A DNA stretch of 64,000 bases from Patescibacteria group bacterium (GCA_038065955.1 JBBTPY010000001.1:1890-65889); one strand, 5' to 3'; shown: positions 3,299 through 63,866, numbered from the stretch's first letter. Notes: generated by a model from the letters alone, not told the origin. Program-made: numbers and translations.

Positions 3299-3383
3299 TA
3301 TCAATTTCGGTTATTTCAACGATAGTTGAAATAACCGAAATTGACTGAAACATTATGAAACATTAAATATTCTTCTATAAAAT
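3299..3383 (+). repeat. intergenic palindromic repeat element, copy A
   Basis: 42-bp palindrome caatttcggttatttcaacgatAgttgaaataaccgaaattg (one centre mismatch) plus conserved tail TTGACTgaaacatta..aaatattcttcTATAAAATT; between divergent DJ-1 and MBL genes. Confidence 0.8.
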
Positions 3384-3404
3384 TATATAATAATATGTGA
3401 AAAC

Positions 3405-4031
3405 ATGAAAATTGAAATTTTACAACTTGGACAATTACAAACAAATTGTTATATCGCCCATTGCGGCGGCGAGGCGATTATTATTGACCCGGCCGATGAA
3501 GCGGAATTTATCGCGGAAAAAATCCAGCGGCTCAATCTCAAACCGTCGGCGATTCTGGCGACCCACGGCCATTTTGACCACATTCTGGCGGCCGGCGAAC
3601 TACAAATGCTCTTAAATATCCCTTTTTATATTCATCCGGCCGACGAATTTCTGCTTAAAGAAATGAACTCTTCGGCGAGTTTTTGGCTGAAAAATAAATT
3701 TAATTATCCCCTGCCGCGAGCTATTGAATTTATTAAAAAAGAATTTTCTATAAAATTCGGGGGTTGCCGATTAAAAGTTATAGAAACTCCCGGACACACG
3801 CCGGGGTCAGTGTGTTTTTTAAGCGAAGACGTTATTTTCAGCGGCGACACTTTATTTAAAAACGGCGTCGGCAGAACCGATTTTTCTTATTCCGACAAAA
3901 CTCAACTCGAAAAATCATTGGAAAAAATTTTCCGCCTGCCTGCCGGTAGGCACGGCCTACCGGCGGAAACTATTATCTACTCCGGCCACGGCGAAGAAAC
4001 CACGATTAAAGACGAAAAAATTCATAAATAA
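3405..4031 (+). CDS. MBL-fold metallo-hydrolase (glyoxalase II-like)
   Basis: THGHFDH metal-binding motif, GHTPGS, overall beta-lactamase fold pattern. Confidence 0.75.
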   Translation: MKIEILQLGQLQTNCYIAHCGGEAIIIDPADEAEFIAEKIQRLNLKPSAILATHGHFDHILAAGELQMLLNIPFYIHPADEFLLKEMNSSASFWLKNKFNYPLPRAIEFIKKEFSIKFGGCRLKVIETPGHTPGSVCFLSEDVIFSGDTLFKNGVGRTDFSYSDKTQLEKSLEKIFRLPAGRHGLPAETIIYSGHGEETTIKDEKIHK

Positions 4032-4510
4032 AATCTCAATTTACGGCGGGACCAATAAGAGCCGGCGTAATCCACTCCAATTCTTTTGGCAGATTTTATT
4101 TTAGATAGTTTTATTTTCACTCCCCTGTCTTCAATCCAAAGACCGGTTTTTTTATTGGCCGATTTTCCGTTGAATTTTCCGTCAATTTTAAGATATTTTG
4201 TAATCCGAGCCGGACCGCTAATTTTATCCGTTCCCCTGATTAAAACAGCGGCCGGATAATTTTCCGGCCCGACTACGAGATTGAGCATCCAATGCATTCC
4301 GTAAGTGAAATAAACATACCAATTCCCTGCTTTATCGAACATTATTTTATTTTTTTCAGTTATGCCCCGAGAAGCATGCGAGGCCTTATCGGAAAATCCG
4401 TCATAAACTTCAACTTCGGCAATCATTAAGGCAATTTCTTTTTCCCCGATTCGTCGAACTAAAAACTTACCCAATAAATTTTTGGCAATATCAACAGCGC
4501 GCTTTTTCAT
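4022..4510 (-). CDS. DNA-3-methyladenine glycosylase (MPG/AAG family)
   Basis: YFTYGMHWMLN and AAVLIRG motifs characteristic of the AAG/Mpg family; ATGA overlap with the upstream gene. Confidence 0.7.
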   Translation of the reverse strand: MKKRAVDIAKNLLGKFLVRRIGEKEIALMIAEVEVYDGFSDKASHASRGITEKNKIMFDKAGNWYVYFTYGMHWMLNLVVGPENYPAAVLIRGTDKISGPARITKYLKIDGKFNGKSANKKTGLWIEDRGVKIKLSKIKSAKRIGVDYAGSYWSRRKLRFYL

Positions 4511-5265
4511 GCCTCAAGTTCTTTCGCGGCGTTTCTGTAAGAACAAAAATCGCATTCCAAAGAAGATTCCGGCAAAGCGTCTTGCGCCAAGCAATTATAA
4601 GCGTCTGTTATCGCCTGTTCCACCCAGGTATTATTTCCTTCATAAGGCAATATCTTTATATTAAATTCCAATTTCCCGTCAAAAGCCTCTTTATCCGCGT
4701 CGCCGTTGCAATAAACGAAATATCCGACATTGTTTACCTTAAACCCGTTTTTTCGAAAAAGCCATTGATAAATTTCCATCTGCCTTTTATATCCTATCTG
4801 CCAGTCGGCATCCAAACTGACTTCTTCGCTTTTTGAAGTCGCCTTATAATCAACAATACTTAATTCTCCGTCTGCGGGATTAACCCAAACATCGTCAATT
4901 CCTCCTGTAATAAGCAAATTGGTTTTCGGATGTAGATATTGAATGCCGCCGCCGAGCGCGTCGCGCCACTCGTTAATTTTTTCATGCTGAAAAGGAATCA
5001 AATCCAAACCGTACGCTTTCATTAAAGGATGAGCCGTTTTGCCGGAGCGATGAATGTCAAATTCTTTTTTCAATAATTTATCAACGGCGGAATTAAGACT
5101 GAAAGGATATCCCGGCGGCTGGGAAACGCCAAGCCGCCTGTCCAGATAAAAACAACGAGGGCAATTTAAAAATAAATCGATTTTACTCCGGCTCAACCTA
5201 TATGGGATTTTTGAATCCGGCTCAAAAAGATTTCGTTTTCTTTGTGGATTATAAAATTTGGACAT
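4507..5265 (-). CDS. PD-(D/E)XK nuclease superfamily protein (Cas4/RecB-like)
   Basis: N-terminal LNCPRCFYL, central IVDYKAT, C-terminal CDFCSYR cysteines. Pattern matches Cas4/AddB-type nuclease domains. Confidence 0.55.
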   Translation of the reverse strand: MSKFYNPQRKRNLFEPDSKIPYRLSRSKIDLFLNCPRCFYLDRRLGVSQPPGYPFSLNSAVDKLLKKEFDIHRSGKTAHPLMKAYGLDLIPFQHEKINEWRDALGGGIQYLHPKTNLLITGGIDDVWVNPADGELSIVDYKATSKSEEVSLDADWQIGYKRQMEIYQWLFRKNGFKVNNVGYFVYCNGDADKEAFDGKLEFNIKILPYEGNNTWVEQAITDAYNCLAQDALPESSLECDFCSYRNAAKELEA

Positions 5266-5267
5266 TT

Positions 5268-5720
5268 TTAATTTATTTGTAAGAGCTCAACTTCAAAAAT
5301 CAGAGTCGCTTTCGGAGGAATGGCTCCGGGGATGCCGTTTTCTCCATAGGCCAAATTATAAGGAATCGTCAGTTTTCTTTTCTCGCCGATTTTCATTCCC
5401 AAGACGCCTAAATCCCATCCTTTAATCACTTGTCCCGAACCAAGAATAAATTCAAATGGCTGGCCGCGGTCAACGCTGGAATCAAACTTTTTACCATCTT
5501 CAAGCCAGCCGGTGTAATGAACCGAAACCTTATCACCCGCTTTCGCCTCATTCCCTTCTCCTGTTTTCAAAATTTCAATAATCGATTGATTGTCTTGATT
5601 TTGAACGGCTTGATTTTCATTTTTTGAAACGTCAGACATATTAAAATAATTCTGCCCGTAATAAGCGGCTACTAAAACAACTGCCACGGCAAAAATTGCT
5701 AATAAAATATTTTTATCCAT
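5268..5720 (-). CDS. FKBP-type peptidyl-prolyl cis-trans isomerase with N-terminal membrane anchor
   Basis: [54 protein letters not shown]. Confidence 0.85.
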
Positions 5721-5770
5721 AATTAAAATAATATCATTTTCTTATAATACCTCAAATACTTTCTGTACGG

Positions 5771-6421
5771 TTAATCGCGTTCTAATTTAATTTTGTGAAA
5801 CGCGTAAAACATAATCGCGAGAATCATAAAACCAAGAAGTGCTAAGCCGGAAAAAAGCAAAATGTCCCGCGTTATAAACGCCTCGCTGGCATACACGACG
5901 ATAATGACAAACGGCAACTCCGTCGCCAGGCTGGCGAAAAAATATTTCCAAAAATCATAACGGATAATTCCCAAAACATAACCGGGAATTTCGGCGGGCA
6001 TTGCCATTCTGAAAAGCAAAATAAACCAAAACTCCGATTTTTTTGAAATGCGACTTTTATAATAATCAATTTTATCAAACGGCAAAAATTGTTTGGCTAC
6101 CGGATAACCGGCGTAATAGCCGATAAAATAAGTAATGACATATCCGATTAACCAGCCGATAAGAAGAAAAACGGAGGTTAAAGCGATTCCCCAGACCATA
6201 ATCGCTGCCGGCACGAGCGGAACGCTGGAAAAAGGCGAAAACATCGCCGAAACGGCCGCTAAACTGATAAAAATCGCCATTCCCCATAATGGATGCTCTT
6301 CAATATATCCGATAATTAAGAACGAAAAATCGTAAAAAATTTCCTGTAAAAAATCCGAATACCAAAATAAGCCGGTAATTGCCGCCACTAAAAACAAAAT
6401 GTATAAATATTTTGTATTCAA
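5771..6421 (-). CDS. DedA/VTT-family membrane protein
   Basis: Polytopic membrane protein with a VTT-like core (PAEIPGYVLGIIRY). Confidence 0.5.
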   Translation of the reverse strand: MNTKYLYILFLVAAITGLFWYSDFLQEIFYDFSFLIIGYIEEHPLWGMAIFISLAAVSAMFSPFSSVPLVPAAIMVWGIALTSVFLLIGWLIGYVITYFIGYYAGYPVAKQFLPFDKIDYYKSRISKKSEFWFILLFRMAMPAEIPGYVLGIIRYDFWKYFFASLATELPFVIIVVYASEAFITRDILLFSGLALLGFMILAIMFYAFHKIKLERD

Positions 6422-6427
6422 TTTATC

Positions 6428-6901
6428 TTATTTTAATCCGTGTTCGTTGAAAAATTTCGTGTATTTTTTATCCACTTCAAGTATATGATGAGAAAGCCAG
6501 TTGCCGGAATAAGAAGCGATTTCTTCAACTAATTTTTTAACGTCGGCTTCTTCGTTTCTGGCGCTGTTAAGATATTTTTTAATCATTTCCCGATATTTAT
6601 TGTGGTTGTCAATATGAAGAACGGCGTCCGGATATTTAAATGCGTCAAAATATTCTTCTTCGGTTCCAAGATGATACATGGCGTAATTTCCGAGTTCATT
6701 GACAAGGGAGAATAATTCTTCTTTTGTTGATTTTTCTTTATCCGCGAGAGCGAATATTTTATTGACGATTTCAAAAAAATGCCTGTGTTGTTCATCAATT
6801 ATTTGTATTCCCACGCCATATTCATCCGTCCAAATAAATTTATTGTTCATATAAAAATAATTTAGCATCTCCGACCTTTTTATTTTATTTAATTTTAACA
6901 A
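6428..6901 (-). CDS. hemerythrin-like metal-binding protein (bacteriohemerythrin)
   Basis: IDEQHRHFF, H..G.EEEYF, H.D.H.KY, H and H motifs in the correct order. The true start may be the internal Met at MNNKFIW. Confidence 0.7.
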   Translation of the reverse strand: MLKLNKIKRSEMLNYFYMNNKFIWTDEYGVGIQIIDEQHRHFFEIVNKIFALADKEKSTKEELFSLVNELGNYAMYHLGTEEEYFDAFKYPDAVLHIDNHNKYREMIKKYLNSARNEEADVKKLVEEIASYSGNWLSHHILEVDKKYTKFFNEHGLK

Positions 6902-6963
6902 ATCCAGCGGTTTCTTACAATTTTAGATATTTCTTCATTTTTATTATATCAGTAAAATTAAAA

Positions 6964-6999
6964 ACAAAAAAACCGCCCTTGATAAAAGGACGGTTTTTA
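6964..6999 (-). terminator. rho-independent terminator of csp
   Basis: Hairpin aaccgccctt..aaggacggtt followed by a U-run on the minus transcript. Confidence 0.6.
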
Positions 7000-7010
7000 T
7001 TTCGCAACGC

Positions 7011-7208
7011 TTACGCGAGCGATACATTTGTGGCGGCCTGGCCTTTTTCGCCATTAACGACTTCAAAAACGACGGCATCGCCAACTTTTAATTCGTCAAA
7101 TGTCACGCCGCTTAATTCTTTAGAATGAAAGAAAATGTCTTTTGTTTCGCCTTCGCGAGAAATAAATCCAAATCCTCTATCCGTAAGAGTTTTAATTGTT
7201 CCGTTCAT
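7011..7208 (-). CDS. cspA: cold-shock protein (CspA family)
   Basis: GTIKTLTDRGFGFI (RNP1) and VFFH (RNP2) motifs; 65 aa. Confidence 0.9.
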   Translation of the reverse strand: MNGTIKTLTDRGFGFISREGETKDIFFHSKELSGVTFDELKVGDAVVFEVVNGEKGQAATNVSLA

Positions 7209-7300
7209 GTGATTATTTTAAAATTATTTTTTCCAGAAACTCGACAGCGTCTCTTGGTATGATTATATTTTTCTATCATATCATAAAAATAATATCTTTG

Positions 7301-8428
7301 TCAAATTAAATATTTTTTGTTTATTAATTTTTCCGGCAAGAAATTGTCTTTGGAATATTTTTCATATCCTTTGCCATAATTTAATTCTTTCATCAGTTTA
7401 GTTTCGGGATTCCGCAATTTCAAAGGAATTGGCAGATTTCCGAATTTTTTAACGTCTTCCATTGCCTTTATGTAAGCTTCGTAAGCTCCTCTGTCTTTTT
7501 TGCATTGAGAAAGATAAGCTACGCCATGAGCCAGATTGATAGCGGCCTCAGGCAACCCTACCGTTTCCACTGCCCTAAAAACATCATTTGCCACCATAAG
7601 GGCCGCCGGTTGCGCCAGACCGATATCTTCACTGGCAAAAATAACCATTCTTCTGGCTATAAATTTTGGGTCTTCGCCGGCGTCAACCATCCGAGCTAAA
7701 TAATACAAAGCGGCGTCCGGCTGGCTCGTCCGCATACTCTTGATAAAAGCCGAGATAACGTTGTAATGCTCCCCTCCTTTTTTATCATAACGTAAAAATT
7801 TTGACTGGAGAGTATTTTTTAATGTTTCAACTGTAATCTTCCCGTAAAGATTTTGAGCATTTTCAAGAACCGTAATCGCCTGCCTCGCGTCGCCGTTAGC
7901 CATGTTAACAAGCCAATCCTCCGCCTCTTTGTCCATTTTCAATCCGGTTCTTTTAATGATGGCCTTTATCTCGTTTTCCGAAAGCTCGTTTAAAACGAAA
8001 ACGCGGCATCGCGAAAGAAGAGGCGAAATAACCTCAAAGCTGGGGTTTTCCGTGGTGGCTCCGATTAAAATTATTTCCCCTTTTTCAACGTAAGGAAGCA
8101 GAAAATCCTGTTGAGCTTTGTTAAAGCGATGAATCTCGTCCAAAAATAAAACCTTGGGAACTCTTTCCGAATCTTCTTCTAATATCTTTTTAATATCCGC
8201 TTTTCCGGCCGAAACCGCGGACAATTCATAAATTTTCGCGTTCAGGCTGTTGGCATATATTTTAGCCAAGGTCGTTTTACCGCTTCCCGGCGGCCCCCAC
8301 AAAATAAACGAAAACATATGTTTTTGTTTAATGGCGATATTTAAAGGTTTCTCATCGCCAACTAAGTGTTCTTGACCGATAAAGTCTTTTAAATCCCGCG
8401 GTCTGATTTTAGAAGCAAGCGGTTCCAT
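7301..8428 (-). CDS. rarA: replication-associated recombination protein A (AAA+ ATPase RarA/MgsA)
   Basis: Walker A GPPGSGKTT, LFLDEIHR, conserved C-terminal MgsA region. Start moved to the internal Met (MEPLASKIRP) to avoid overlap with the upstream gene. Confidence 0.8.
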   Translation of the reverse strand: MEPLASKIRPRDLKDFIGQEHLVGDEKPLNIAIKQKHMFSFILWGPPGSGKTTLAKIYANSLNAKIYELSAVSAGKADIKKILEEDSERVPKVLFLDEIHRFNKAQQDFLLPYVEKGEIILIGATTENPSFEVISPLLSRCRVFVLNELSENEIKAIIKRTGLKMDKEAEDWLVNMANGDARQAITVLENAQNLYGKITVETLKNTLQSKFLRYDKKGGEHYNVISAFIKSMRTSQPDAALYYLARMVDAGEDPKFIARRMVIFASEDIGLAQPAALMVANDVFRAVETVGLPEAAINLAHGVAYLSQCKKDRGAYEAYIKAMEDVKKFGNLPIPLKLRNPETKLMKELNYGKGYEKYSKDNFLPEKLINKKYLI

Positions 8429-8438
8429 ATAAAAACAA

Positions 8439-9932
8439 TTAATTTCCTCGCTGTTCGGGCTGGCCGCCGCGGATTTCCCGATATTTATTTTTATATTTTT
8501 CAATTATTTCTTCAACTTCTTTATTTGAAATTTCCACTCGTAAAAGGTCAATGGCATTTATAGTGTCGTAAATATCAAGTTTGTTTTCAAGCTTATAAAT
8601 GGCATCGCGCCAAAGAATCGCTTTTTCATATTCGCCTTTTAAAGTCGCTTCCTTTTCTAATCGCTTCATCATATTAATAAAAGCCCAATAAACTCCTTCT
8701 TCGGCGCCCCCGCGGCCGATAGTTCTGTCCTTAAAAGGAATGCGAATAATGGATTTTTGTTCCTTCATCATCTGTCTGATTTTCCCGGTTCGCTGCCAAT
8801 TAAAAGCGGTAGTTATTATTTTTTCATAATAGTTGCGCGCTTCTTCAAAATTTTTTTTAGAAACATCGGGAATATGTCTCATTGTATCAAGCAACCGATA
8901 CGCGCCCGCTTCAATCATTTCAAGACTCCACCACGGCTTAGCCGAAGCCCACCAAAAATGGTCGCTTGACAGCGCCAAATCAGTTTTTTCTCTAACAAGA
9001 ACGTATCGCGGATTATTTTTATCCATCGCGTAAACTTCTTTAAGAATAAGTTCCGTAAATTCTCTTTGCCACTTATGAATTATATTTCCGGAATCAGCCC
9101 ATGAAAGAAATTGATTGTTTTCTTCAATGTCTTTTCGGCTTGAAGCCCAAGTTGATTTTACCGGCAAAACTTCTTTAATCTCGCCATAATAAGAAAGAAT
9201 GTCGGAAATTTTAATTAATTCAAATTCCGGCGCGTCAAAAACGTCAAAAATCATTTTTTCCAAACCGGGGCGATGATGGCCGAATGTTTCACCGTCCATC
9301 GCCGTCAAAACATAACGGCCGCTTTTCAAGTCTTGAGCCATCGCTTCAAAAAGCGATTCGCGAGAACGGACAACGGCGCTCATGATAAGATTGCTCAAAC
9401 GCCGCTCGCGGAAAAAAACCTTAAGATTGCCGCCGGCAATTTTATAAATTTTTTTATAATCAACGCGTTCAATATAACCGTCATACGCGATTTCGTCCAA
9501 AATAATCCATTCAAAACCCAGTGAAGAAATAATAGCGGGCAGATTTTCGCTATAAGCCATTTCCGGCGGGAAAAATCCCCGCGGTTTGTAAGCGCCGCCT
9601 AAAAAAAACTTATTGGTTTCATCGTTGATTTTTACCTGCCTGATAATTTCATCCTCGCTTAAAAACGGCAAAAGCGCGTGATATTTTGTGGAAGAAGTAA
9701 ACTCAATTCTATTTTCTTTTCCTAAATCGCGCAAAATATCAATAAGGTCTTTATATCCGTATTTGTCGAAAAGCTCGAAAAGAGCGCCGCTTATATTTAA
9801 AGTAAGGTTTACGCGTTTGTGTTTTTTTAATCCTTCAAGAAGAGGACGATAACTTTGGGCGACAATAGCTTCAAGAACATCCGGTTGTTGTTCCGCCGGC
9901 TGATAAATATGTAAAAAATTCGCCCAATACAT
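8439..9932 (-). CDS. glycoside hydrolase family 57 protein (alpha-glucan processing)
   Basis: N-terminal WANFLHIYQP (HxHQP-type GH57 signature), EWIILDE region; adjacent to glgA. Confidence 0.65.
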   Translation of the reverse strand: MYWANFLHIYQPAEQQPDVLEAIVAQSYRPLLEGLKKHKRVNLTLNISGALFELFDKYGYKDLIDILRDLGKENRIEFTSSTKYHALLPFLSEDEIIRQVKINDETNKFFLGGAYKPRGFFPPEMAYSENLPAIISSLGFEWIILDEIAYDGYIERVDYKKIYKIAGGNLKVFFRERRLSNLIMSAVVRSRESLFEAMAQDLKSGRYVLTAMDGETFGHHRPGLEKMIFDVFDAPEFELIKISDILSYYGEIKEVLPVKSTWASSRKDIEENNQFLSWADSGNIIHKWQREFTELILKEVYAMDKNNPRYVLVREKTDLALSSDHFWWASAKPWWSLEMIEAGAYRLLDTMRHIPDVSKKNFEEARNYYEKIITTAFNWQRTGKIRQMMKEQKSIIRIPFKDRTIGRGGAEEGVYWAFINMMKRLEKEATLKGEYEKAILWRDAIYKLENKLDIYDTINAIDLLRVEISNKEVEEIIEKYKNKYREIRGGQPEQRGN

Positions 9933-9938
9933 TTAAAG

Positions 9939-11435
9939 TTAGCCGTTCGGCTGTTGATGATATTCAATAGCCTTTTTGAATAAATTAACGTATTCGTAAG
10001 CCGATTTAACCCATGAAAAATCGGTTTTCATTGCCCGCTTTTGAATATTGCGCCAGAATTTCGGATATTGATAAGTTTCAATCGCCCTTACCATTGCGCC
10101 ATAAAAAGCGCGGTTATCAAATTTTTCAAAAATAAAACCTGTGCCTTCTTGCGTCCGAGGATTATAATTTATTACGCTATCGGCCAACCCTCCGGTTTTT
10201 CTGACAATCGGAACGGCGCCATAACGCATCGCCTCCATTTGCGCTAAACCGCAAGGTTCAAAACGCGAAGGAATGATAATCGCGTCGGAACCCGCATAAA
10301 CCATGTGAGATAAAACCTCGTCATAATTTAAATCAATACCGACTTTTTTAGGATATTTCTTAGCGAGTTCCTGAAAAAAATTCATAAAATAGCCGTCTCC
10401 AGAACCGCTAACTACCAACTGAATGTCAAAATTTTCAAGTAATGATTCGCTGGCATCAATAAACAAACCTATTCCTTTTTGGTCGGTCAGCCGCGAAACA
10501 ATGCCGAAAAGAATAGTATTTTCGGAAACCGGCAAATTAAATTTACGCTGAAGAACGGCTTTATTTTTTAATTTTAAATCAAGATTTTTCTGACCGTAAT
10601 GAAATTCAATATGAGAATCTGTTTCGGGATTATAAATGTCGGCGTCAATGCCGTTTAAAATTCCGAAAAGTCTTGAACGCCTTTCGCTTAAAAGATCATT
10701 TAATCCTTCTCCATATTCGGGAGTGGTAATTTCTTGAGCGTAAGTCGGAGAAACGGTATTAACAATATCCGCATGCATAATGCCTCTCCTCATAAAATTA
10801 AGTTTTAAAAGTCTCGGGTCGTTAAAAGCCGGTATTGCTTCTCTTCCGGAATCATAATCCATTTCAGACACAAAATGATAGTCAAACATCGATTGAAAAA
10901 AAAGATTATGAATAGAAAAAGCAATGGCAACGGAAGAAAGTTTAGGGTCCCCTTTATAAATAGTGTGAAAATAATTAGGAATAAGACCGGATTGCCAATC
11001 GGCGGCGATAATCACATCCGGCCGCCAAGATGAATGTCTTAAAAATTCAAGAACCGCCCTCGAAAGAAGCGCCCATCTTATCGCATCATCGGCGTAACCG
11101 TAAACATTCGCCCGCTTTTCGTAATACTCAAGATTTTCAAGAAAATACGCTATTGTTTCGCCGGAATCATTGTCATATTTTAAAACATTGGAAACAAAAA
11201 GACCGTGAGGGTCTTCTTCTTCGGAAGACGCCGGCTTTAAACCTTCAAGTTCTAAACGCAAAGGATATTTTTCAGTATCAATAATAGCGTATTTAGGAAG
11301 AAAAATACGGGCATCGTGGCCTAATACCCGAAGAGCGCTTGGCAAAGAACGCATTACTTCTCCCAATCCGCCGACTTTAATAAACGGCGCCGCTTCAGAA
11401 GCGACAAAAAGAAGCTTAAGTTTTGATTCTTTCAT
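9939..11435 (-). CDS. glgA: glycogen/starch synthase (GT5)
   Basis: KVGGLGEV ADP-glucose binding motif near the N-terminus; FEPCGL near the C-terminus. Confidence 0.85.
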   Translation of the reverse strand: MKESKLKLLFVASEAAPFIKVGGLGEVMRSLPSALRVLGHDARIFLPKYAIIDTEKYPLRLELEGLKPASSEEEDPHGLFVSNVLKYDNDSGETIAYFLENLEYYEKRANVYGYADDAIRWALLSRAVLEFLRHSSWRPDVIIAADWQSGLIPNYFHTIYKGDPKLSSVAIAFSIHNLFFQSMFDYHFVSEMDYDSGREAIPAFNDPRLLKLNFMRRGIMHADIVNTVSPTYAQEITTPEYGEGLNDLLSERRSRLFGILNGIDADIYNPETDSHIEFHYGQKNLDLKLKNKAVLQRKFNLPVSENTILFGIVSRLTDQKGIGLFIDASESLLENFDIQLVVSGSGDGYFMNFFQELAKKYPKKVGIDLNYDEVLSHMVYAGSDAIIIPSRFEPCGLAQMEAMRYGAVPIVRKTGGLADSVINYNPRTQEGTGFIFEKFDNRAFYGAMVRAIETYQYPKFWRNIQKRAMKTDFSWVKSAYEYVNLFKKAIEYHQQPNG

Positions 11436-11556
11436 AAATGTATTATTAAAATTATAATCTATTTTAGAGCTTTTTCAAATATCACTTCAATATTTTTTCC
11501 GTTCCCTTAGCTAAAATTTTTGCCTTTAACTAATAATCTAATATGGCGGTTTTATT

Positions 11557-12330: not shown

Positions 12331-12418
12331 TATTTATATTGTAATCCGGATATTAATAAAATACTAACGGCTTCTTTATTAATTTTAAATTATGGCTTAA
12401 TTATGGCTGTTTTTCAAA

Positions 12419-12449
12419 CAAAAAAACAGAGGTTTTGTCTCTGTTTTTT
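12419..12449 (-). terminator. rho-independent terminator of the Cys-rich protein gene
   Basis: cagag-gttttgt-ctctg hairpin flanked by an A-run and a T-run. Confidence 0.6.
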
Positions 12450-16679: not shown

Positions 16680-16787
16680 TTACATAAACGCCATTCCCTT
16701 AAGCGCTTCTTTAAAAAGACCTTTCAAATCGCCGGCTTTTACCAACATCCTAATATCGGCCGTATATTTTAAAAATTCAAAAGACAT
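16680..16787 (-). pseudogene. possible archease N-terminal remnant (35 codons, then stop)
   Basis: MSFEFLKYTADIRMLVKAGDLKGLFKEALKGMAF resembles the conserved archease N-terminus (F/YE.L.HTAD...G.....F..A); the frame is truncated after 35 aa, directly beside repeat copy B. Confidence 0.25.
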
Positions 16788-16825
16788 TTCGTAATTCAAT
16801 ATAATTATATTCAAAAATAATTATA

Positions 16826-16945
16826 TCATATCAATTTCGGTTATTTCAACGATCGTTGAAATAACCGAAATTGACTGAAACATTAATTGACTAAAACATT
16901 AAAAACATTAAATGTTCTTCTGTAAAATTGTCTGTAAAATTAATA
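16826..16945 (+). repeat. intergenic palindromic repeat element, copy B (longest, with internal tail duplication)
   Basis: Perfect 42-bp palindrome caatttcggttatttcaacgatcgttgaaataaccgaaattg at 16832-16873 plus duplicated gactgaaacattaa tail and ..ctgtaaaattaataaatga. Confidence 0.85.
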
Positions 16946-17136
16946 AATGATTGTACTGTTTTAAAAACCGAATCTTACAAAACCGCTCTCTTGAATTTTT
17001 AACAATTTTGAATATCCCCTTACGAGTCCGCTTTTTATTTAATTTACTCAATCAACTTTTTTCACCGCCGTAAAAAAGATTGGAAGCGTCAATAAAAGCG
17101 AATGTTTTCATAAATTTATTTTATCGCTATCTAAAT

Positions 17137-19533: not shown

Positions 19534-19539
19534 AAAAAT

Positions 19540-21233: not shown

Positions 21234-21300
21234 AAATCAATTTCGGTTATTTCAACGATCGTTGAAATAACCGAAATTGATAGCGAAAATTTCTTCTGCC
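21234..21300 (+). repeat. intergenic palindromic repeat element, copy C (tail truncated)
   Basis: Perfect 42-bp palindrome at 21238-21279, immediately upstream (on the minus strand) of tRNA-Asn. Confidence 0.8.
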
Positions 21301-21407
21301 GAACGAAGACCGCAGCGTGTTTCTCTCTTTACCCCGTTAGAAGCAGAATGCCCCGTGGCTTGCCGCGGGAATAAATGCTCTTCTGTTGTTTTAGCTTCTA
21401 ACGGGAT

Positions 21408-30935: not shown

Positions 30936-30967
30936 AAATATCGCTATCTTATAAGATAGCGATATTT
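30936..30967. terminator. bidirectional terminator between convergent redox genes
   Basis: Perfect palindrome aaatatcgctatcttataagatagcgatattt flanked by A and T runs. Confidence 0.6.
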
Positions 30968-47045: not shown

Positions 47046-47096
47046 TAAATAAAAAAAATCTGATTGTCTATTCGCTTTTATTTATTTTATCCAAGT

Positions 47097-47161
47097 CTTC
47101 AAAATATCCACATATGTGGCTATTTTGAAGACAAAAAAAAGGTTGACCGACCGGTCAACCC
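47097..47161. terminator. 38-bp near-perfect palindrome plus a second hairpin between convergent genes
   Basis: gtcttcaaaataTCCACATATGTGGCtattttgaagac, then A8, then ggttgacc-gacc-ggtcaacc. The latter plus the U-run terminates the minus-strand gene. Confidence 0.5.
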
Positions 47162-52680: not shown

Positions 52681-52722
52681 TTTTTAGTCATTTACTCGCA
52701 TATACGAGTAAATGACTAAAAA
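52681..52722. terminator. 42-nt perfect palindrome (18-bp stem) after thrS; third of three consecutive hairpins
   Basis: tttttagtcatttactcg-catata-cgagtaaatgactaaaaa, preceded by gaaaacc-gat-ggttttc (52596-52612) and cctgcgg-caaga-ccgcagg (52631-52649). Confidence 0.5.
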
Positions 52723-56562: not shown

Positions 56563-56842
56563 ATACCGCCGGCACTTTTAAAAATCCGTTTTCTTTTTCC
56601 GGAAAAGCGTCAATCAATTTTCTACTCGTACCCGCTCCCATAAATTCGTCTTCGCGAAAAACATTTTTTTCAATCGTTCCGCCCGACATCGACTCAATAT
56701 TTTTCGTGTCAACTTCTTTAAGTTCTTCAAAATAATCAAAAATCGCCTGAATGTCTTTAAGTAATTTGTCCTCGCTTTTTTCATTTAATTCAATTTTTGA
56801 AAGTTCAGCCAAATATTTTAAATTTTGCTTGTCGATTTTCAT
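56555..56842 (-). CDS. gatC: amidotransferase subunit C
   Basis: 95 aa, LAELSKIELNEKSEDKLLKDIQAIFDYFEEL pattern, immediately upstream of gatA. Confidence 0.8.
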   Translation of the reverse strand: MKIDKQNLKYLAELSKIELNEKSEDKLLKDIQAIFDYFEELKEVDTKNIESMSGGTIEKNVFREDEFMGAGTSRKLIDAFPEKENGFLKVPAVFE

Positions 56843-56853
56843 TTTTTATTTTT

Positions 56854-57237
56854 TTATTTACGAGATTTTAATTCTTCAAGGTCTTTATCTATATGTTCAA
56901 TTTGTAATTGAATTTCTTTAAGCGAATCTTTTTCCATTTTGATTTCTTCTTCGGTTTTTTCAATCATCTTTTTCTCTTGTTTTAATCCTGAAATAATTAC
57001 CTTATCGCCGATAAAAAAATAAACAAAAAGGCCGGTTAAAAGAAGAAGAACAACGCTTACAAAAATCGAAACGGGACCATTCATAAACGGAAACATATCA
57101 GCTGTCATCCACACCCCGCGCCAAAAAAGCACTATTCCAACAGCTCCGATAAAAGCGTATAAAATAGGCCGACGGCTCAAAATAGTTCTGATTTTATCTT
57201 CTAATTTGTCAAAAAATTTTACAATTTTATGTATCAT
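56854..57237 (-). CDS. hypothetical membrane protein with C-terminal coiled coil
   Basis: Two TM helices then a heptad-rich tail. Confidence 0.4.
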   Translation of the reverse strand: MIHKIVKFFDKLEDKIRTILSRRPILYAFIGAVGIVLFWRGVWMTADMFPFMNGPVSIFVSVVLLLLTGLFVYFFIGDKVIISGLKQEKKMIEKTEEEIKMEKDSLKEIQLQIEHIDKDLEELKSRK

Positions 57238-57290
57238 AATTAAAAATATTATACCTTTTCCATGGCCGTTTGCAATTTAATTAATATATC

Positions 57291-58292
<1,002 letters not shown>

Positions 58293-58390
58293 TTATCAAA
58301 ATTACGCTTGTTTTTCAATAAAAAAATAGGCCAAGCTTTTTAGGGCTTGACCTTAGTGAATCCTCGGCAAAAGGACTAAATTTAACGCTA

Positions 58391-59197
58391 CTACCGCGAG
58401 AACGCCGGGGTAAGAGAAATCTTATTCCCTCCAACAGCCGCAGTGAATTCTTTTAATCTCAAAAACGCGTGAGGCGCTTGTTCCTTATGGTTAAGCGCTG
58501 TTGACGTTGATGGCGACGACAAATCAATGGAAACAATGAAATCATCTCCAGTCGCAATCACCCTGTTATTCTGCACCCTGTCAAGGAACAGAATATCGCC
58601 CTTCTCTTTATAAACAATACCTGATAACTGCCAGCGATTATTAATCGCATCATTCACCTTAATCTTCATCACCCTATTTCCTTCAGTGAAAAGAAGATTG
58701 TCGCTGTCTAATATCCTAATGTTTCTTACGTTAATATCGGGAACAGTTTTAAGATAAAACATACCGAAAGAATCGGCGATGTAGCACCTTATAGGCATAA
58801 TGGGCGCCGACAAAAACGCGTAAGCCGGGAAAAATGCCGATGTCATGCTTTTTTCAAGCATAACGGAGACGATTTTTTCCGCCGCAAGTTTTACTTGCGA
58901 CGAAATATTTCCTGCCGCTCCAATGTTTCCTGCCGCCTCAATGATTGTTCTCTCAATCCTGTTCCCGTTTTTCAAAATCTGAATCGAGAACAGTCTCGCA
59001 TAATACCTTTGATTATCCACATTCGGAAGAGGTAATAAAACCTTTTCCTTCACAGAGACAATCCTTGATAATCTCATTACCTCAATATCGTCTCCGTCAA
59101 ACGGAAACGCCATAGAGATGATTCTTTTCGGGTCCTCCTTGGTAATATTGTTAATAGATACTCTTCCAACTTCCAACGACACTTTTTCCATAATCAA
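58391..59197 (-). CDS. hypothetical protein
   Basis: 268-aa ORF with slightly elevated GC; no motif recognised. Confidence 0.4.
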   Translation of the reverse strand: MIMEKVSLEVGRVSINNITKEDPKRIISMAFPFDGDDIEVMRLSRIVSVKEKVLLPLPNVDNQRYYARLFSIQILKNGNRIERTIIEAAGNIGAAGNISSQVKLAAEKIVSVMLEKSMTSAFFPAYAFLSAPIMPIRCYIADSFGMFYLKTVPDINVRNIRILDSDNLLFTEGNRVMKIKVNDAINNRWQLSGIVYKEKGDILFLDRVQNNRVIATGDDFIVSIDLSSPSTSTALNHKEQAPHAFLRLKEFTAAVGGNKISLTPAFSR

Positions 59198-59291
59198 TTT
59201 CCTCCTTATTGTTTTTCAGATTAATAAACATCCCTTTGCCGAGGATATCTGATATTTAAAAGAACAATTTTTAAATATATATTAAACAATT

Positions 59292-59780
59292 CTATTTGTC
59301 AAGAAACACGCGTTCTTCTTCGCCGTAAACGGCTTCAAAATCAAGTTTTTTATAATCAAAAAGTTCATCCGCGTTGAAAAATCGCCAAATTTCTTTTTCA
59401 GCGTTTTCAATAGAATCCGAAGCGTGAATAATATTCATCTGGGAGGAAACGGAAAAATCACCGCGGATTGTCCCCATATCGGCGTTTCTTCCGGAAGTCG
59501 CTCCGCAAACCATTCTAACGACTTTTACCGCTTCTATTCCTTCTAAAACCATTACCGTTACCGGAGACTGCTTCATATATTTTTTTAACCCTTCAAAAAA
59601 CGGCTTATCTTTATGATGAATATAATGTTCCTCTAAAAGAATATCGCTCAATTGCATCATTTTAAGACCGACTATTTTTAATCCTTTTTGTTCAAAACGC
59701 CCGATTATTTTTCCAAGAATATTTCTCTGTAAAGCGTCGGGCTTAATTATTACTAAAGTTTTTTCTTCGTATAATTTCAT
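59292..59780 (-). CDS. ndk: nucleoside-diphosphate kinase
   Basis: KTLVIIKPDA, NIIHASD (active-site His). Confidence 0.9.
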   Translation of the reverse strand: MKLYEEKTLVIIKPDALQRNILGKIIGRFEQKGLKIVGLKMMQLSDILLEEHYIHHKDKPFFEGLKKYMKQSPVTVMVLEGIEAVKVVRMVCGATSGRNADMGTIRGDFSVSSQMNIIHASDSIENAEKEIWRFFNADELFDYKKLDFEAVYGEEERVFLDK

Positions 59781-59797
59781 GATAAATATAATACCAA

Positions 59798-61189
59798 TTA
59801 TCTTTTCTTTTTTATTTCAATACTAAGTTCATTTAATTGTTCTTTTCCTACCTCGGCCGGGGCGCCCATCATTAAATCGCGGCCGTCGCCGGTTTTAGGA
59901 AACGCAATGACTTCGCGAATATTCGGTTCGTCCAATAAAATCGCCATCAACCTGTCAACCCCCAAAGCGATGCCGCCGTGAGGCGGAGCGCCAAAATTAA
60001 AAGCTTCAAGCAAATGACCGAAGCGTTCCCGATAAATTTCCTGTTTCAATCCGAGAATGCCGAAAATTTTTTCCTGTAAATCTTTTTGATAAATTCTGAT
60101 TGAACCTCCGCCTATTTCAAAGCCGTTAAGCACAATATCATAGGCTCTTGCCCGGACGTTTTTAGGATTTTTATCAAGCGTTTCCAAATCTTCCAGATGA
60201 GGCGAAGTAAAAAGATGATGCATTGAAACAAGTTTCTTTTCCGTTTCGGAATATTCAAAAAGCGGAAAATCAGTCACCCATAAAAACGCCAATTCGCCGT
60301 TATTATTTTTATCGCTCCGCACATCCGGCTTATCGGTTTTATGCTTTTCTAAAATATGACCGTAAATTTCTTGAGGAAACGGCTTTTGCCAGATTTTCTT
60401 TTCAGGAAAGAATTTTTCAATAATGGAGATTAAAAGTTCTTCTGTTAATCCGATTATTTCATTTTCATCGGTAAAACTCATTTCTAAATCCAACTGCGTA
60501 AATTCCGGTTGGCGGTCGCCACGAGTGTCTTCATCGCGGAAACATTTGGCAATTTGAAAATATCTTTCAAATCCGGCAACCATTAAAAGCTGTTTATATT
60601 GCTGAGGAGATTGCGGCAAAGCGTAAAATTTTCCCGATTCCAAACGCGAAGGCACCAAATAATCGCGCGCTCCCTCAGGAGTTGATTTTCCTAAAATCGG
60701 AGTTTCAATTTCAACGAAATCTTTTTCAATTAAAAAATCGCGGATAAATTTAATGATTTCGGCGCGCATTTTCAAATTTTTTTGGAGCCGGCTTCTTCGT
60801 AGGTCAAGATAACGGTATTTCATCCGCGCTTCTTCGCCGATTTCGCGACCGTCGGTATCAATGAAAATAGGCAATGTTTCCGAAGGATTCAAAATTTCCA
60901 ATTTTTCCGCCTGAATTTCAAATTCGCCGGTAATAATTTCCGGATTTTCCATTCCTTTGGGTCGGCGGCTGATTTTGCCGATTATTTTAATCACCCATTC
61001 GGAACGCAATTTTTGGGCGTTTTCATAAACTTCTTTATTGACCGGCAAAAACACCGTTTGAACAACGCCGCTTCGGTCGCGCAAATCAATAAAAATAAGT
61101 TTGCCGTGGTCTCTTCGTGTCGTCACCCAACCCATTAATTCCACCTGCTCTCCTTCTTTGTTAATAATTTCCCTGGTTAAAACGCGCAT
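59798..61189 (-). CDS. aspS: aspartate--tRNA ligase, compact (no GAD insertion), presumably non-discriminating
   Basis: OB anticodon-binding N-terminus, class II motifs FRDEDTRGDRQPEFTQLD and GGGSIR...GAPPHGGIALGVDR; gatCA present nearby. Confidence 0.85.
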   Translation of the reverse strand: MRVLTREIINKEGEQVELMGWVTTRRDHGKLIFIDLRDRSGVVQTVFLPVNKEVYENAQKLRSEWVIKIIGKISRRPKGMENPEIITGEFEIQAEKLEILNPSETLPIFIDTDGREIGEEARMKYRYLDLRRSRLQKNLKMRAEIIKFIRDFLIEKDFVEIETPILGKSTPEGARDYLVPSRLESGKFYALPQSPQQYKQLLMVAGFERYFQIAKCFRDEDTRGDRQPEFTQLDLEMSFTDENEIIGLTEELLISIIEKFFPEKKIWQKPFPQEIYGHILEKHKTDKPDVRSDKNNNGELAFLWVTDFPLFEYSETEKKLVSMHHLFTSPHLEDLETLDKNPKNVRARAYDIVLNGFEIGGGSIRIYQKDLQEKIFGILGLKQEIYRERFGHLLEAFNFGAPPHGGIALGVDRLMAILLDEPNIREVIAFPKTGDGRDLMMGAPAEVGKEQLNELSIEIKKKR

Positions 61190-61201
61190 TTAAAAAGTTT
61201 A

Positions 61202-62062
61202 TCATTTATTTTTAAAAATGTTAATCATTCCTCTGTCATTAATTATTAATTTAATCGTTCCATCATTGTCTGTGCGGAAAATACGCGCGCCGGCCGATGT
61301 CAGACGATTTAAAGCCGCGACCGTCGGATGGCCGTAATTATTTTTACCGACCTCAATTACCGCAATTTTTGCTCCTATTTTTTTTAAAAATTCTTCTCCC
61401 GAAGAAAATTTGGAACCATGATGGCCGACTTTCAAAATATCGGCTTTAATGTCAAAATTTTTCGCCAAATAATCCTCCACATTTTTGCCAATATCGCCGG
61501 TAAATAAAATATCCGCCGCCGAATTTAAACCGCCAAGCTTCATCACAAGAGTCGTATCATTTAATTCCGAACTTTTCAAAAAATCGGACGTGGGCGAAAG
61601 AATGTCAAACCGGCTGTCTTGATATTTTATTTTATCGTTACCGGCTAAAATAATTTCCGGAATTTTATTTTCTTTTAGAGCTTTTTTCAAATCGGCAAAG
61701 GATTTCGCCTCTCCTTCGCGGCCGTTATAAATAAAAGCGCCAACTTTGTATCTTTTTAAAACTTCAATTAAACCGGCAAAATGGTCGTATTGAGGATGAG
61801 ATAAAATCACCAAATCAATATAACGGTCGGTCGGCGCCAAAACCGAAGACAATTCATTTAAAACTTTTTTATTCGGACCGCCGTCAATTAAAACTTGAAC
61901 GCCTGACGGCAAATTCACCAGCTGGCTATCCCCTTGCCCGACATCTAAAAAATAAACTTCCAGATTTTTATTCGGCCCGCCCAAAACAATTTGAGACCAA
62001 ACAAAAAAATCAAAAATGATTAAAAAGATTCCGATTAAAATCAGCCGGTCGCGCGAAAACAT
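61202..62062 (-). CDS. ComEC-family metallo-beta-lactamase-fold protein (standalone)
   Basis: N-terminal TM, VLIDGGP, SHPQYDHFAG (HxHxDH-like), KVGHHGS. Confidence 0.7.
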   Translation of the reverse strand: MFSRDRLILIGIFLIIFDFFVWSQIVLGGPNKNLEVYFLDVGQGDSQLVNLPSGVQVLIDGGPNKKVLNELSSVLAPTDRYIDLVILSHPQYDHFAGLIEVLKRYKVGAFIYNGREGEAKSFADLKKALKENKIPEIILAGNDKIKYQDSRFDILSPTSDFLKSSELNDTTLVMKLGGLNSAADILFTGDIGKNVEDYLAKNFDIKADILKVGHHGSKFSSGEEFLKKIGAKIAVIEVGKNNYGHPTVAALNRLTSAGARIFRTDNDGTIKLIINDRGMINIFKNK

Positions 62063-62115
62063 AAAATTAGCTATTTTTATTGCTTCTGCCTTTTTTTAAT
62101 AATACAATTAAATCA

Positions 62116-62394
62116 ATGGATAACAAAGATTATTTAAAAACCCTTAAAGAACGCGCCAAAAAATCCCGCGTTTACAAAAAATACCAATTTACCGGCCTTT
62201 TAATCGCCCAACTATTGAACGACGAAAAGCACAAATCGCTTTATATTAAACTGGCGAAAAAACATTCCGGCGACCATTTATTAAGTATCGCCAAAGACGT
62301 TTCCGAAAGAAAAAAAATAGAAAATAAAGGAGCTTATTTTATGAAAGTGCTGATAAAAACGCATCCGGATATTTTGAAAGATAAAAAGAGTTAA
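62116..62394 (+). CDS. hypothetical basic protein
   Basis: ATG at 62116 (the track starts at a TTG); 92 aa. Confidence 0.35.
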   Translation: MDNKDYLKTLKERAKKSRVYKKYQFTGLLIAQLLNDEKHKSLYIKLAKKHSGDHLLSIAKDVSERKKIENKGAYFMKVLIKTHPDILKDKKS

Positions 62395-62456
62395 AAAAAT
62401 ATGGGATTATTACTAATCCCATATAATGTACTATTTTATTCTTATGCGAAATAACA

Positions 62457-62651
62457 CTATAAACCCTTAATAAAGAGTCTGATGCCTCCTATACCATCGA
62501 AAAAATATGCGCTATTTGGACTCAACAGACTCGGCAAGCGACCGTCAGAACAAAAAATCGTGGCGTGGTCTATTTTACATCTCTTCAATAATTTTTCTGC
62601 TTTTTCGCTTTCTTCTGATTGATCCCTTAATAAAATTATTTTTCCTTCCAT
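62457..62651 (-). CDS. hypothetical small protein
   Basis: 64-aa ORF; overlaps the next ORF by 16 nt. Confidence 0.3.
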   Translation of the reverse strand: MEGKIILLRDQSEESEKAEKLLKRCKIDHATIFCSDGRLPSLLSPNSAYFFDGIGGIRLFIKGL

Positions 62652-62821
62652 ATTAATCCCCCTTTCTTTATTTTTAAATCTAATCTTATTAAATAATCTT
62701 CTTCGTAATGCTCATTCAATCTATTTGGACAAGATTCATTACAACGATCGCAAGCATCACTGTCTTTAAATTTACATGATTTTTCTTCCTCATAATCGTC
62801 GTTATATCGCGTCATAAACAC
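62636..62821 (-). CDS. hypothetical small Cys-rich protein
   Basis: CKFKDSDACDRCNESCP (four Cys), suggesting a Zn-ribbon-like fold. Confidence 0.35.
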   Translation of the reverse strand: MFMTRYNDDYEEEKSCKFKDSDACDRCNESCPNRLNEHYEEDYLIRLDLKIKKGGLIWKEK

Positions 62822-62954
62822 CTCCTTTTATTGTTTTAAACAACCTAATTCTTATTTTTTATTTAAAAGAACAAAATAATAAATAACTGGTTTTATACGC
62901 AATATCTGCGGATAAAATTTGTATTTTGTATAAAAATACTGAATAATCATACTT

Positions 62955-63509
62955 ATGAAAATCTTAACTGTCAATGACAAAAAAGAGGAAAAATTTTTGC
63001 GGACTAAAACCGCGAATTTTGATTTTTCAAAGTTTACCAAAAAAGACATTGGCGAATTGATTAAAAAAATGCGCGAAGCGATGAATAAAGCCGTTGGCAT
63101 CGGTTTAAGCGCAAATCAGATAGGTTTGGATTTGAGATTGTTTGTCGCCAAAATTTCAAATAAACCGTTAAAACGAGACAAAAATAATAAAATAATCTTG
63201 CCACCGCCGGGAGAAATGAAATTTTACGCGATTTTTAATCCGGAAATTACGAAGTTTTCCGAAAAAAAAATCATAATGGAAGAAGGCTGTTTAAGCGTCC
63301 CGGGAATTTACGGCTTGGTTGAACGACCGGAAAGCGTTGTTTTAAAAGGATACAATCGCTATGCTAAACCGCTCACCGTTAAAGCCGATGGATTATTAGC
63401 CAGAGTTTTCCAGCACGAAACGGACCATCTGAACGGCATACTTTTTATTGATAAATGCGACAAGATATATACAATAAATACTAAATTCCAAAATCCAAAT
63501 TCTAAATAA
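62955..63509 (+). CDS. def: peptide deformylase
   Basis: GIGLSANQIG, EGCLSVPG, QHETDHLNG metal-binding motifs. Confidence 0.9.
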   Translation: MKILTVNDKKEEKFLRTKTANFDFSKFTKKDIGELIKKMREAMNKAVGIGLSANQIGLDLRLFVAKISNKPLKRDKNNKIILPPPGEMKFYAIFNPEITKFSEKKIIMEEGCLSVPGIYGLVERPESVVLKGYNRYAKPLTVKADGLLARVFQHETDHLNGILFIDKCDKIYTINTKFQNPNSK

Positions 63510-63536
63510 ATTACAAATTTTAAAAATTAAATCTCT

Positions 63537-63565
63537 CCGCCGAAGGCGGATCCGCCTTCGGCGGA
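63537..63565 (+). terminator. GC-rich 13-bp-stem hairpin downstream of def
   Basis: ccgccgaaggcgg-atc-ccgccttcggcgg; no clean U-run, so intrinsic termination is uncertain. Confidence 0.4.
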
Positions 63566-63775
63566 AAATCTCAAATTTACATCTTATCTTGCTGTAAAAT
63601 AAAATCTTAAAACAAATACAAAATCCTAAATTCTAAATAATATCAAAATCCAAAATTTAAAACTCAAAATACGCGAATTATTATTTTTTGAATTTTGAAT
63701 TTTAATCATTTGAATTTATTTGGGATTTATCCCCCACATAAAATTATGTGAGGGGATTTAGAATTATAAGACTTA

Positions 63776-63866
63776 TATCATATCAATTTCGGTTATTTCA
63801 ACGATCGTTGAAATAACCGAAATTGGCTGAAACATTAAATATTCTCCTGTAAAATTAATAAATGAT
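63776..63866 (+). repeat. intergenic palindromic repeat element, copy D, upstream of fmt
   Basis: Perfect 42-bp palindrome at 63784-63825 plus tail ..TTGGCTgaaacattaaatattctcctgtaaaattaataaatga. Confidence 0.85.

Follow-up and report, generated by a model that had tools for sequence, protein, structure and literature searches.

The window analysed here, a stretch of 64,000 nucleotides from a Patescibacteria group bacterium (GCA_038065955.1, JBBTPY010000001.1:1890-65889), carries four copies (A to D) of a 42-bp palindromic element. In this species and in related lineages, palindromes of this family are associated with a gene for a PaaX-like protein, the longer units that contain them are homologous to one another, and their insertion at orthologous sites is polymorphic. 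A pattern scan of the whole window recovered the 42-mer CAATTTCGGTTATTTCAACGATCGTTGAAATAACCGAAATTG with 0 mismatches in copies B (16832-16873), C (21238-21279, or 46 bp counting its flanking AT..AT) and D (63784-63825), and with one mismatch in copy A (3302-3343), which has the centre GATAG instead of GATC and is therefore not an exact palindrome. The first-pass annotation of the window had described a perfect palindrome in four copies; number and positions stand, and exactness holds for B, C and D. The 42-mer had no match in 100 dinucleotide shuffles of the window, none being expected by chance; folded as single-stranded DNA it reaches -18.4 kcal/mol (z = -8.4), and its stem has a G+C content of 31%. 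A covariance model built from 23 distinct sites (termed here R1) found only the four copies in the window, at 62-66 bits (64 bits for A, 65.6 for B and 64.5 for D).

Gene calls place all four copies between genes, as annotated. Copy A separates a divergent pair, the DJ-1/PfpI gene (minus strand, start 3285) and a metallo-beta-lactamase (MBL)-fold hydrolase gene (plus strand, start 3405). Copy B is bordered by an archease-like remnant (minus strand, start 16788) and, on its other side, by a DUF5667 gene at its 3' end. Copy C precedes tRNA-Asn (minus strand) by 105 nt and follows a ZIP transporter gene at a distance of 128 nt, and copy D separates def from fmt; the reported proximity to the MBL hydrolase gene, tRNA-Asn and fmt is thus borne out for A, C and D.

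Palindromes around a paaX-like gene

When species-representative genomes were scanned, the inner 26 bp matched four contigs, all from one metagenome-assembled genome (MAG) labelled Saccharibacteria (CAZXNT01), where the outer arms are altered symmetrically (CCT/AGG or CCC/GGG vs TCGG/CCGA here). A metagenome scan returned Hainich groundwater contigs of the window's own species, in which one locus (L023) equals B, another (L029) equals D and a third (L028) is close to A, together with 8 additional loci. The count for the species, window included, is at least 12 distinct loci: 6 with both flanks described below, 2 with the tail only and 4 bare palindromes, among them the perfect ones of C, L015b and L012a. 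Neighbours of the copies include DJ-1/MBL hydrolase, fmt, tRNA-Asn, glyS, rpsP, rpsO/integrase-like, winged helix-turn-helix (wHTH) and response regulator genes, and others. Viral contigs scanned for the palindrome gave no match.

At locus L012, two copies bracket a gene of 197 amino acids (aa), P0001, whose product matches Pfam PaaX_M (PF20803) at 6e-21; exact protein matches assign the window to MAG GCA_964355445.1 from Hainich, and P0001 lies on the 695,280-bp contig ERZ1286166 contig_106, to which we infer that the window belongs. The orthologue in the other MAG (79% identity) is likewise bracketed by palindromes, with one site 96 nt downstream and an imperfect variant, AAATTCCTGTTATTCCAACGATCGTTTGAATAACAGGAATTT, 37 nt upstream and next to the same TATATCATAT flank. 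Six additional lineages (62-74% protein identity), including Nealsonbacteria and Wolfebacteria, have palindromes around the gene in every case. Across the resulting eight lineages (L048/L012, L003, L058, L056, L055, L057, L051 and L053/54; 62-100% protein identity), a near-perfect upstream palindrome of 34-58 bp always ends 16-62 nt before the paaX-like ATG, and a second one always lies between an overlap with the stop codon (one lineage) and about 150 nt downstream. Judged from the distance between palindrome and ATG in 8/8 lineages and from the position of the -10 box in four close ones, an operator-like site overlaps or abuts the gene's own promoter.

The palindromes are lineage-specific in sequence (for example ATCAATTACGGTTATTCCAGCGATCGCTGGAATAACCGTAATTGAT, ACATATTTTCAAACGATCGTTTGAAAATATGT, AAATTACGTGTATAATTACTATAGTAATTATACACGTAATTT and CACCCATAACAGCGATCGCTGTTATGGGTG), with symmetric changes between lineages; all those flanking the gene are centred on CGATCG, CGATAG or CTATAG, and most retain TTAT/ATAA about 10 bp from the centre. 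In the flanking ~20 kb, R1 found only the gene-flanking sites in L053, L055, L057 and L058, and one extra site in L051. The gene itself is single-copy, vertically inherited and not mobile: three lineages (L048, L003 and L058) conserve the order infC-smpB-paaX-like-x-argS. The annotation had suggested a binding site for a regulator and a search for the cognate DNA-binding protein: this association in all eight lineages argues for the former, and the bracketed PaaX-like gene is the candidate that such a search yields.

Symmetry is maintained site by site. Among 23 distinct sites, 94.1% of 437 cells are Watson-Crick pairs vs 67% with partners shuffled (in a second count, 405/432 vs a shuffled mean of 269), and in 17 of the 19 pairs both partners have changed (108 cells). 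This symmetry operates at the level of DNA, and a homodimer co-evolving with its site would be expected to produce such symmetric change from one lineage to the next. A similarity in TTTCA..TGAAA, along with the presence of several copies within 64 kb, also suggested a chromosome-organisation site, like parS or the Noc-binding site NBS, for a ParB/Noc-type protein. We considered this and rejected it as having next to no probability: TATTTCAACG resembles the parS half-site TGTTTCAC only loosely, the palindrome is wholly different in L053, L055 and L057 yet still tracks the paaX-like gene, all copies are intergenic, and no ParB gene adjoins any copy examined.

With 678 close homologues, and 3105 clusters when grouped at 50% identity, the paaX-like family is sizeable and well conserved, its proteins typically being of 180-200 aa. 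An AlphaFold2 model of P0001 computed with a 56-sequence alignment (pLDDT 75.7, against 46 from the single sequence) places three helices and then a beta hairpin in the N-terminal 100 residues, which is the winged-helix order, and residues 112-190 match Cas2 structures (3exc, 2ivy, 5zyf) and E. coli PaaX (8a39) in Foldseek, with a probability of ~1 and weak E-values. The motif FDIPE aligns with the Cas2 catalytic-Asp strand; searches with this gene gave matches to PaaX_M and Cas2 only, and no Y1 (HUH) transposase. We regard the protein as a relative of PaaX, not as PaaX, and, going by the Pfam match and the model, as a plausible DNA binder. Protein and site may also co-vary: the five proteins whose sites have the outer arms AATTNC(G/C) keep L-H-E-(A/S)-I-K in the helix preceding the wing, and the three with other outer arms have K, R or CR at that helix position, a pattern that is only suggestive because numbers are small and lineages are not independent.

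Some observations around these loci stand apart. A tmRNA or 23S fragment beside the paaX-like gene in L012/L048, suspected by eye, was dismissed after ARAGORN and Rfam returned nothing. Stand-alone GIY-YIG proteins (83-99 aa) recur near several of the fetched Parcubacteria loci (L051 17914-18174, L056 1142-1393, L057 4081-4380 and L058 819-1079), with no link to the palindrome established. The locus L015 (2244-2920) encodes a protein of 174 aa that combines a LexA-like wHTH domain with a GIY-YIG-like motif (weak matches to the UvrC N-terminus); a response-regulator gene comes next. Palindromes lie to either side of the gene for this protein, and one of the two is the symmetric variant CAATTGCGG..CCGCAATTG.

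The same AT-rich 24-bp core also turned up in metagenome contigs of high G+C content (0.55-0.58; L009, L025, L031, L036, L006/L017, L014 and L039), one group of which has TTATTTCAACGTACGTTGAAATAA within a repeat of >100 bp beside unrelated genes, and L013 (154-197) and L041 (8534-8577) hold TTATTTCAACTATAGTTGAAATAA in 42-bp palindromes with symmetric CGG/CAG arms. We do not count this core as conservation across phyla: it is shared by construction of the search pattern (a palindromic pattern has 10 free positions only), and R1 beyond the core is weak, at 22-26 bits for L017 and L031. We treat the high-GC matches as probably unrelated; L013/L041, at 54-56 bits, may or may not belong to the family.

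Promoter-like flanks of the copied unit

The palindrome is commonly the centre of a longer unit. A conserved tail, RCTGAAACATTAAATRTTCTYCTRTAAAATT, continues from copies A, B and D and is absent from C, as had been annotated, and B and D have a further left flank, TTATATCATAT, and right flank, AATTAATAAATGATT, in common; the units, put at about 115 bp, measure 106 bp in the case of D (63762-63867). A common orientation had been reported for all copies, which holds for the tails within the window and says nothing of the palindrome itself; further copies vary in the orientation of the tail relative to neighbouring genes. Overall, the copied unit exceeds the palindrome by 12-22 bp at one end and by 41-79 bp at the other, and both flanks are non-palindromic and promoter-like.

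On the shorter side, the promoter of a complete unit would consist of a -35-like TTGAAA within the palindrome arm, followed 18 nt later by TGATATAAT. Unit B has the strongest such match: its -10 flank (16820-16831) reads TGATATAAT on the minus strand and gives TTGAAA (16849-16844)-18-TATAAT with an extended -10 (TG), an 11/12 match to sigma-70, facing the archease-like remnant. An alignment with L048 shows the corresponding flank of unit D, AATTATAAGACTTATATCATAT (63762-63783; minus-strand reading TGATATAAG), to be homologous to the paaX-like gene's 5' region. That of unit A, TGGATTTAAATCCTAT (3286-3301, minus strand), lies between the palindrome and the DJ-1/PfpI start codon and is diverged, matching the master flank AGAATTATATCACATC at 11/16 bases (read by eye); with TTGAAA inside the palindrome, its -10 candidates are TAGGAT or TTTAAA. 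The archease-like open reading frame (ORF) directly downstream of the match in unit B (16680-16788, minus strand) resembles, by eye, the archease N-terminus (MSFEFLKYTADIRMLVKAGDLKGLFKEALKGMAFM) and is probably a pseudogene, because a stop is followed by no intact continuation in any frame.

On the longer side, the plus-strand tails each contain a promoter-like pair. Tail A (3344-3384), with an 11-bp tandem duplication of GAAACATTA(T/A), has ATGAAA-17-TAAAAT (3355-3383) facing the MBL hydrolase gene. Tail B (16874-16952), which is longer by duplications of 25 and 12 bp (TTGACTNAAACATTAA twice plus a partial copy, and CTGTAAAATT twice, ending in AATAAATGATT), has TTAAAA-18-TAAAAT (16899-16928); beyond it, ~36 more bases (to 16988) are common to copy L037. 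Tail D, GCTGAAACATTAAATATTCTCCTGTAAAATTAATAAATGATT (63826-63867), has CTGAAA-17-TAAAAT (63827-63855) facing fmt (ATG 63936), and its last bases, ATGATT, repeat the smpB start. The duplications lie upstream of the tail promoter match and leave it intact. The tail thus resembles a small variable-number tandem repeat, with GAAACATTA(A/T) present one to three times and CTGTAAAATTAT one to three times among copies (3344-3384 and 16874-16952 in the window, and L016), a pattern suggestive of slippage in which the copy nearest the promoter has retained the right spacing.

Upstream of the paaX-like gene, a -10 box is found 6 nt past the palindrome end in L048, L003, L056 and L058 (read by eye). Complete units have their two -10 boxes beyond the ends of the palindrome, each directed away from it, so that the palindrome is upstream of both predicted starts and would act as DNA. 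This bears on the RNA hairpin that the annotation had offered, in which the 19-20-bp stem serves as a terminator, RNase III site or regulatory stem-loop of an untranslated region (UTR). Three points speak for it: a long, perfect stem; the TTTTATTG that comes after copy C in the minus-strand reading, which a terminator scan matched; and copies downstream of genes, which could fall in 3' UTRs. We nevertheless consider an RNA element very unlikely: besides the outward -10 boxes, no T-tract was seen beside A, B or D on either strand (only C, on the minus strand, is T-rich), and the arms are strictly Watson-Crick, with G.U in just 7 of the 437 cells, no more than expected among the 33 that are non-Watson-Crick and as rare as other mismatches. 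At the gathering score, Rfam found only three tRNAs in the window, and permissive scans of loci B and C gave sub-threshold plant and animal microRNA-hairpin models only, as any long hairpin does; these searches gave no family for the longer conserved noncoding RNA gene of which the palindrome might have been part.

A 20-codon minus-strand ORF in D (MFQPISVISTIVEITEIDMI, with AGGAG in the tail) was discarded: the 11-bp and 25-bp duplications in A and B break its frame or its ribosome-binding-site spacing and the MAG copies, from another species, lack its ATG (read by eye), so it is not a gene. Other near-perfect intergenic palindromes of 32-42 bp, outside this family, occur in the window (30936-30967, 47095-47132 and 52681-52722; for example GTCTTCAAAATATCCACATATGTGGCTATTTTGAAGAC) and in L048 (13698-13739, a similar one centred on CCACATATGTGG). 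They may be operators of other regulators; Pfam identified no regulator among the neighbours of the three in the window.

Source locus and insertion of the units

The spacer between smpB (minus strand) and the paaX-like gene (plus strand) of this genome contains tail, palindrome and -10 flank, interrupted by a 103-bp element. Without that element, the spacer can be aligned over its full length with unit D, from AATTATAAGA (the paaX-like leader) to the smpB ATGATT, and it aligns also with B, L016, L026 and L037; the dispersed units are therefore copies of the smpB/paaX-like promoter region that predate the 103-bp insertion. The inserted element has terminal repeats CCCCGTTAGAAGC/GCTTCTAACGGGG and a flanking TAAA duplication. 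It represents a second repeat family, resembling miniature inverted-repeat transposable elements (MITEs; L048 9788-9890, L012 2580-2682), and sits in the smpB-side -10; units D, B and L016 serve as its paralogous 'empty site', and a 74-bp relative adjoins copy C (21332-21405).

Comparison of orthologous intergenic regions, which the annotation had proposed, showed loci A and D to be empty in relatives. Between DJ-1 and MBL, the spacer measures 29 bp (AAAATTTATTATATAATAATATTTGAAGT) in L062, 57 bp in L061 and 119 bp here, where the ancestral AAAATTATATAATAAT remains to the right of the insertion and merges with the right end of tail A; the -10 flank of unit A is absent from both relatives. Between def and fmt, it measures 85 bp in L060, which is syntenic, 96 bp in L059 and 427 bp here. 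R1 found no site at these orthologous loci (L059-L062), and copies A and D are accordingly lineage-specific insertions. Near-identical strains (L042-L047) show no polymorphism at D, which appears only at 75-81% protein identity.

As the insertion at A split DJ-1 from its ancestral TATAAT, 7 nt from the ATG, DJ-1 must use a promoter borne by the element. In the ancestral 29-bp spacer, that single TATAAT is also 12 nt from the MBL ATG (L062 6565-6593; L061 9944-10000), an arrangement that implies, for these Parcubacteria, divergent promoters that overlap and mRNAs that are leaderless or nearly so. The def-fmt spacer (63510-63935) holds, in addition to unit D, a G+C-rich 34-bp palindrome (63534-63567) and the hairpin CCCCCACATAAAATTATGTGAGGGG (63731-63755), a type that recurs in a Nealsonbacteria contig (L056 2173-2196).

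What had been proposed as a mobile, promoter-carrying unit of MITE or repetitive extragenic palindromic (REP) type is supported in its mobility by the empty sites at A and D and the 12 or more loci, and in its promoter content by sigma-70-type matches in both flanks. Its class is another matter. Possible target-site repeats are TTAG on both sides of D and a TAAAT-like repeat at A; B and L016 show none, no repeat is consistent across copies, and divergence of the empty sites precludes junctions at single-base resolution. No transposase lies beside copies in ~400 kb of fetched loci, the flanked genes being PaaX-like and wHTH. With no consistent duplication and no transposase, the unit is not a demonstrated MITE or REP, and its inverted repeat is central, not terminal as in a MITE. 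Correia elements, the MITEs of Neisseria, are ~100-150 bp long and intergenic, with outward promoters, 26-bp terminal inverted repeats, an unrelated core and a TA duplication. The unit resembles them as a small intergenic repeat whose inverted repeats accompany outward promoters for neighbouring genes; it has no sequence relation to them, and its inverted repeat is central and contiguous with the promoters outside.

A selfish, non-autonomous palindromic repeat of the REPIN/MITE type, mobilised in trans by the PaaX-like protein, whose flanked gene would correspond to that of a REP-associated tyrosine transposase (RAYT) between its REPs, would account for the palindromes on both sides of the gene in 8/8 lineages and for the insertion polymorphism at A and D, with any promoter effects incidental. 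Copies are near-identical within a genome, per-site symmetry suits a hairpin substrate, FDIPE falls on the strand of the Cas2 catalytic Asp, and the same genome harbours a second, clear MITE-like element. REPIN-RAYT systems, too, consist of short intergenic palindromic repeats, flank both sides of a single-copy, vertically inherited gene, and proliferate in some genomes only. However, the flanked gene is by Pfam not an HUH/Y1 transposase; it is a single-copy gene of conserved synteny whose identity across candidate phyla is 60-80%, and most lineages show no proliferation (the ~20 kb around L053, L055, L057 and L058 has only gene-flanking sites). The palindromes here are perfect over 42 bp, unlike those of REPINs, which are imperfect, 20-40 bp long and set as inverted doublets. 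Furthermore, the copied unit is a promoter region from upstream of one specific gene, including the smpB start codon, and is not bounded by an inverted repeat, nor was a consistent target-site duplication found. On balance, we consider a selfish repeat unlikely.

Homology of the units to one another and to the source spacer, as well as the strong promoter match in unit B, would also follow if the bidirectional smpB/paaX-like promoter had simply been duplicated by illegitimate recombination, with the palindrome a structural feature or the site of another factor and not bound by the PaaX-like protein. Near-identical promoters before unrelated genes are documented in prokaryotes: in these putative mobile promoters, ~100 bp of near-identical upstream DNA precedes unrelated genes in one genome, rewiring their regulation (PMC3575422). 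Plain reuse of a promoter nevertheless leaves unexplained why every lineage has another palindrome after the gene, why bare palindromes without promoter flanks (C, L015b and L012a) stay perfect, and why the sequence beside this one gene changes symmetrically from lineage to lineage, and we give it only a slim chance. In contrast to the documented cases, the source locus can be named here, the unit is bidirectional, and comparative genomics supplies a candidate operator together with its regulator gene.

A candidate operator and its spread

We favour, with a probability of roughly 0.6, the reading that the palindrome is the operator of the PaaX-like regulator within a bidirectional promoter, and that this cassette was duplicated to at least 10 new loci in this species and at least 3 in the CAZXNT01 MAG. 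The ancestral home of the palindrome would be the regulator's own locus, where one copy overlaps or abuts the core promoter, in this genome between the divergent smpB and paaX-like genes, and the second lies just downstream of the gene. Because the palindrome sits between two outward-facing promoters, a dimer bound to it would occlude both, repressing them by steric hindrance. E. coli PaaX acts in this manner on Px, where it represses its own expression by hindering RNA polymerase from the operator TGATTC-N27-GAATCA (PMC9493321). The whole promoter-operator unit of 90-106 bp, or the palindrome alone, would then have been copied into at least 10 other intergenic regions, where the copies may supply or replace promoters, placing the neighbouring genes, probably, in one regulon.

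The E. coli and Pseudomonas PaaX proteins share with ours the central Cas2-like domain (PF20803; Foldseek 8a39), an operator of ~40 bp with inverted outer half-sites ~32-33 bp apart, and a site overlapping the regulator's own promoter. The outer arms AATTNCGG/CCGNAATT are ~32 bp apart from centre to centre, so that span and half-site separation are as in the E. coli operator, with a different sequence. The systems differ in that the protein here is ~190 aa vs ~305, without PaaX_C and far below the equivalog cut-off, and in that no paa catabolic genes adjoin. Here, moreover, the whole 42 bp is palindromic, not the outer hexamers alone, a second site lies downstream of the gene, and further sites are dispersed beside housekeeping genes.

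Several results weigh against this operator model. The N-terminal wHTH had no confirming match by fold or sequence comparison, the ligand domain PaaX_C is absent, and the protein scores 21.5 bits against TIGR02277, the NCBIfam PaaX equivalog, whose cut-off is 264.5. The -35/-10 resemblance that had been pointed out in the tail is there, as CTGAAA/ATGAAA-17-TAAAAT, and matches 9/12 of the sigma-70 consensus, no better than shuffled sequence, which reaches the same. The minus-facing promoter of copy D is directed at def from its 3' side, bare copies, C among them, are ~60 nt or more from any obvious promoter, and the downstream site sometimes falls between convergent genes (L048, L003, L056 and L057), which is atypical for an operator. 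Symmetric double differences also separate sites within one genome (L058, L056 and L015a) while each single site remains a perfect palindrome, which a homodimeric repressor does not predict; they point either to a protein that recognises an extruded cruciform or to correction by template switching in palindromes. The model is, throughout, built from position and comparison.

The short wHTH-Cas2-like proteins may, as a long shot, recognise the hairpin or cruciform of the 42-bp palindrome and help to copy it, a partnership of the REPIN/RAYT kind that doubles as a portable repressor-controlled promoter. If true, this would explain the palindromes on both sides of the gene, the perfect symmetry of each site and the bursts of copies in some lineages.

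The element has not been described in the literature searched; under the operator model it combines a PaaX-type operator with a mobile promoter, kinds that are each known singly. Patescibacteria have very few transcription factors and are mostly uncultured, and to our knowledge gene regulation in this group, the candidate phyla radiation, is almost unexplored. The palindromes around the paaX-like gene nominate a concrete regulator-operator pair for a protein family nearly ubiquitous in Parcubacteria, with a site that is predictable from sequence in each genome. Cumulatively, the empty sites and the named source locus indicate that a complete bidirectional promoter-operator cassette can be duplicated, which would rewire fmt, glyS, rpsP, tRNA-Asn and DJ-1/MBL in a streamlined genome.

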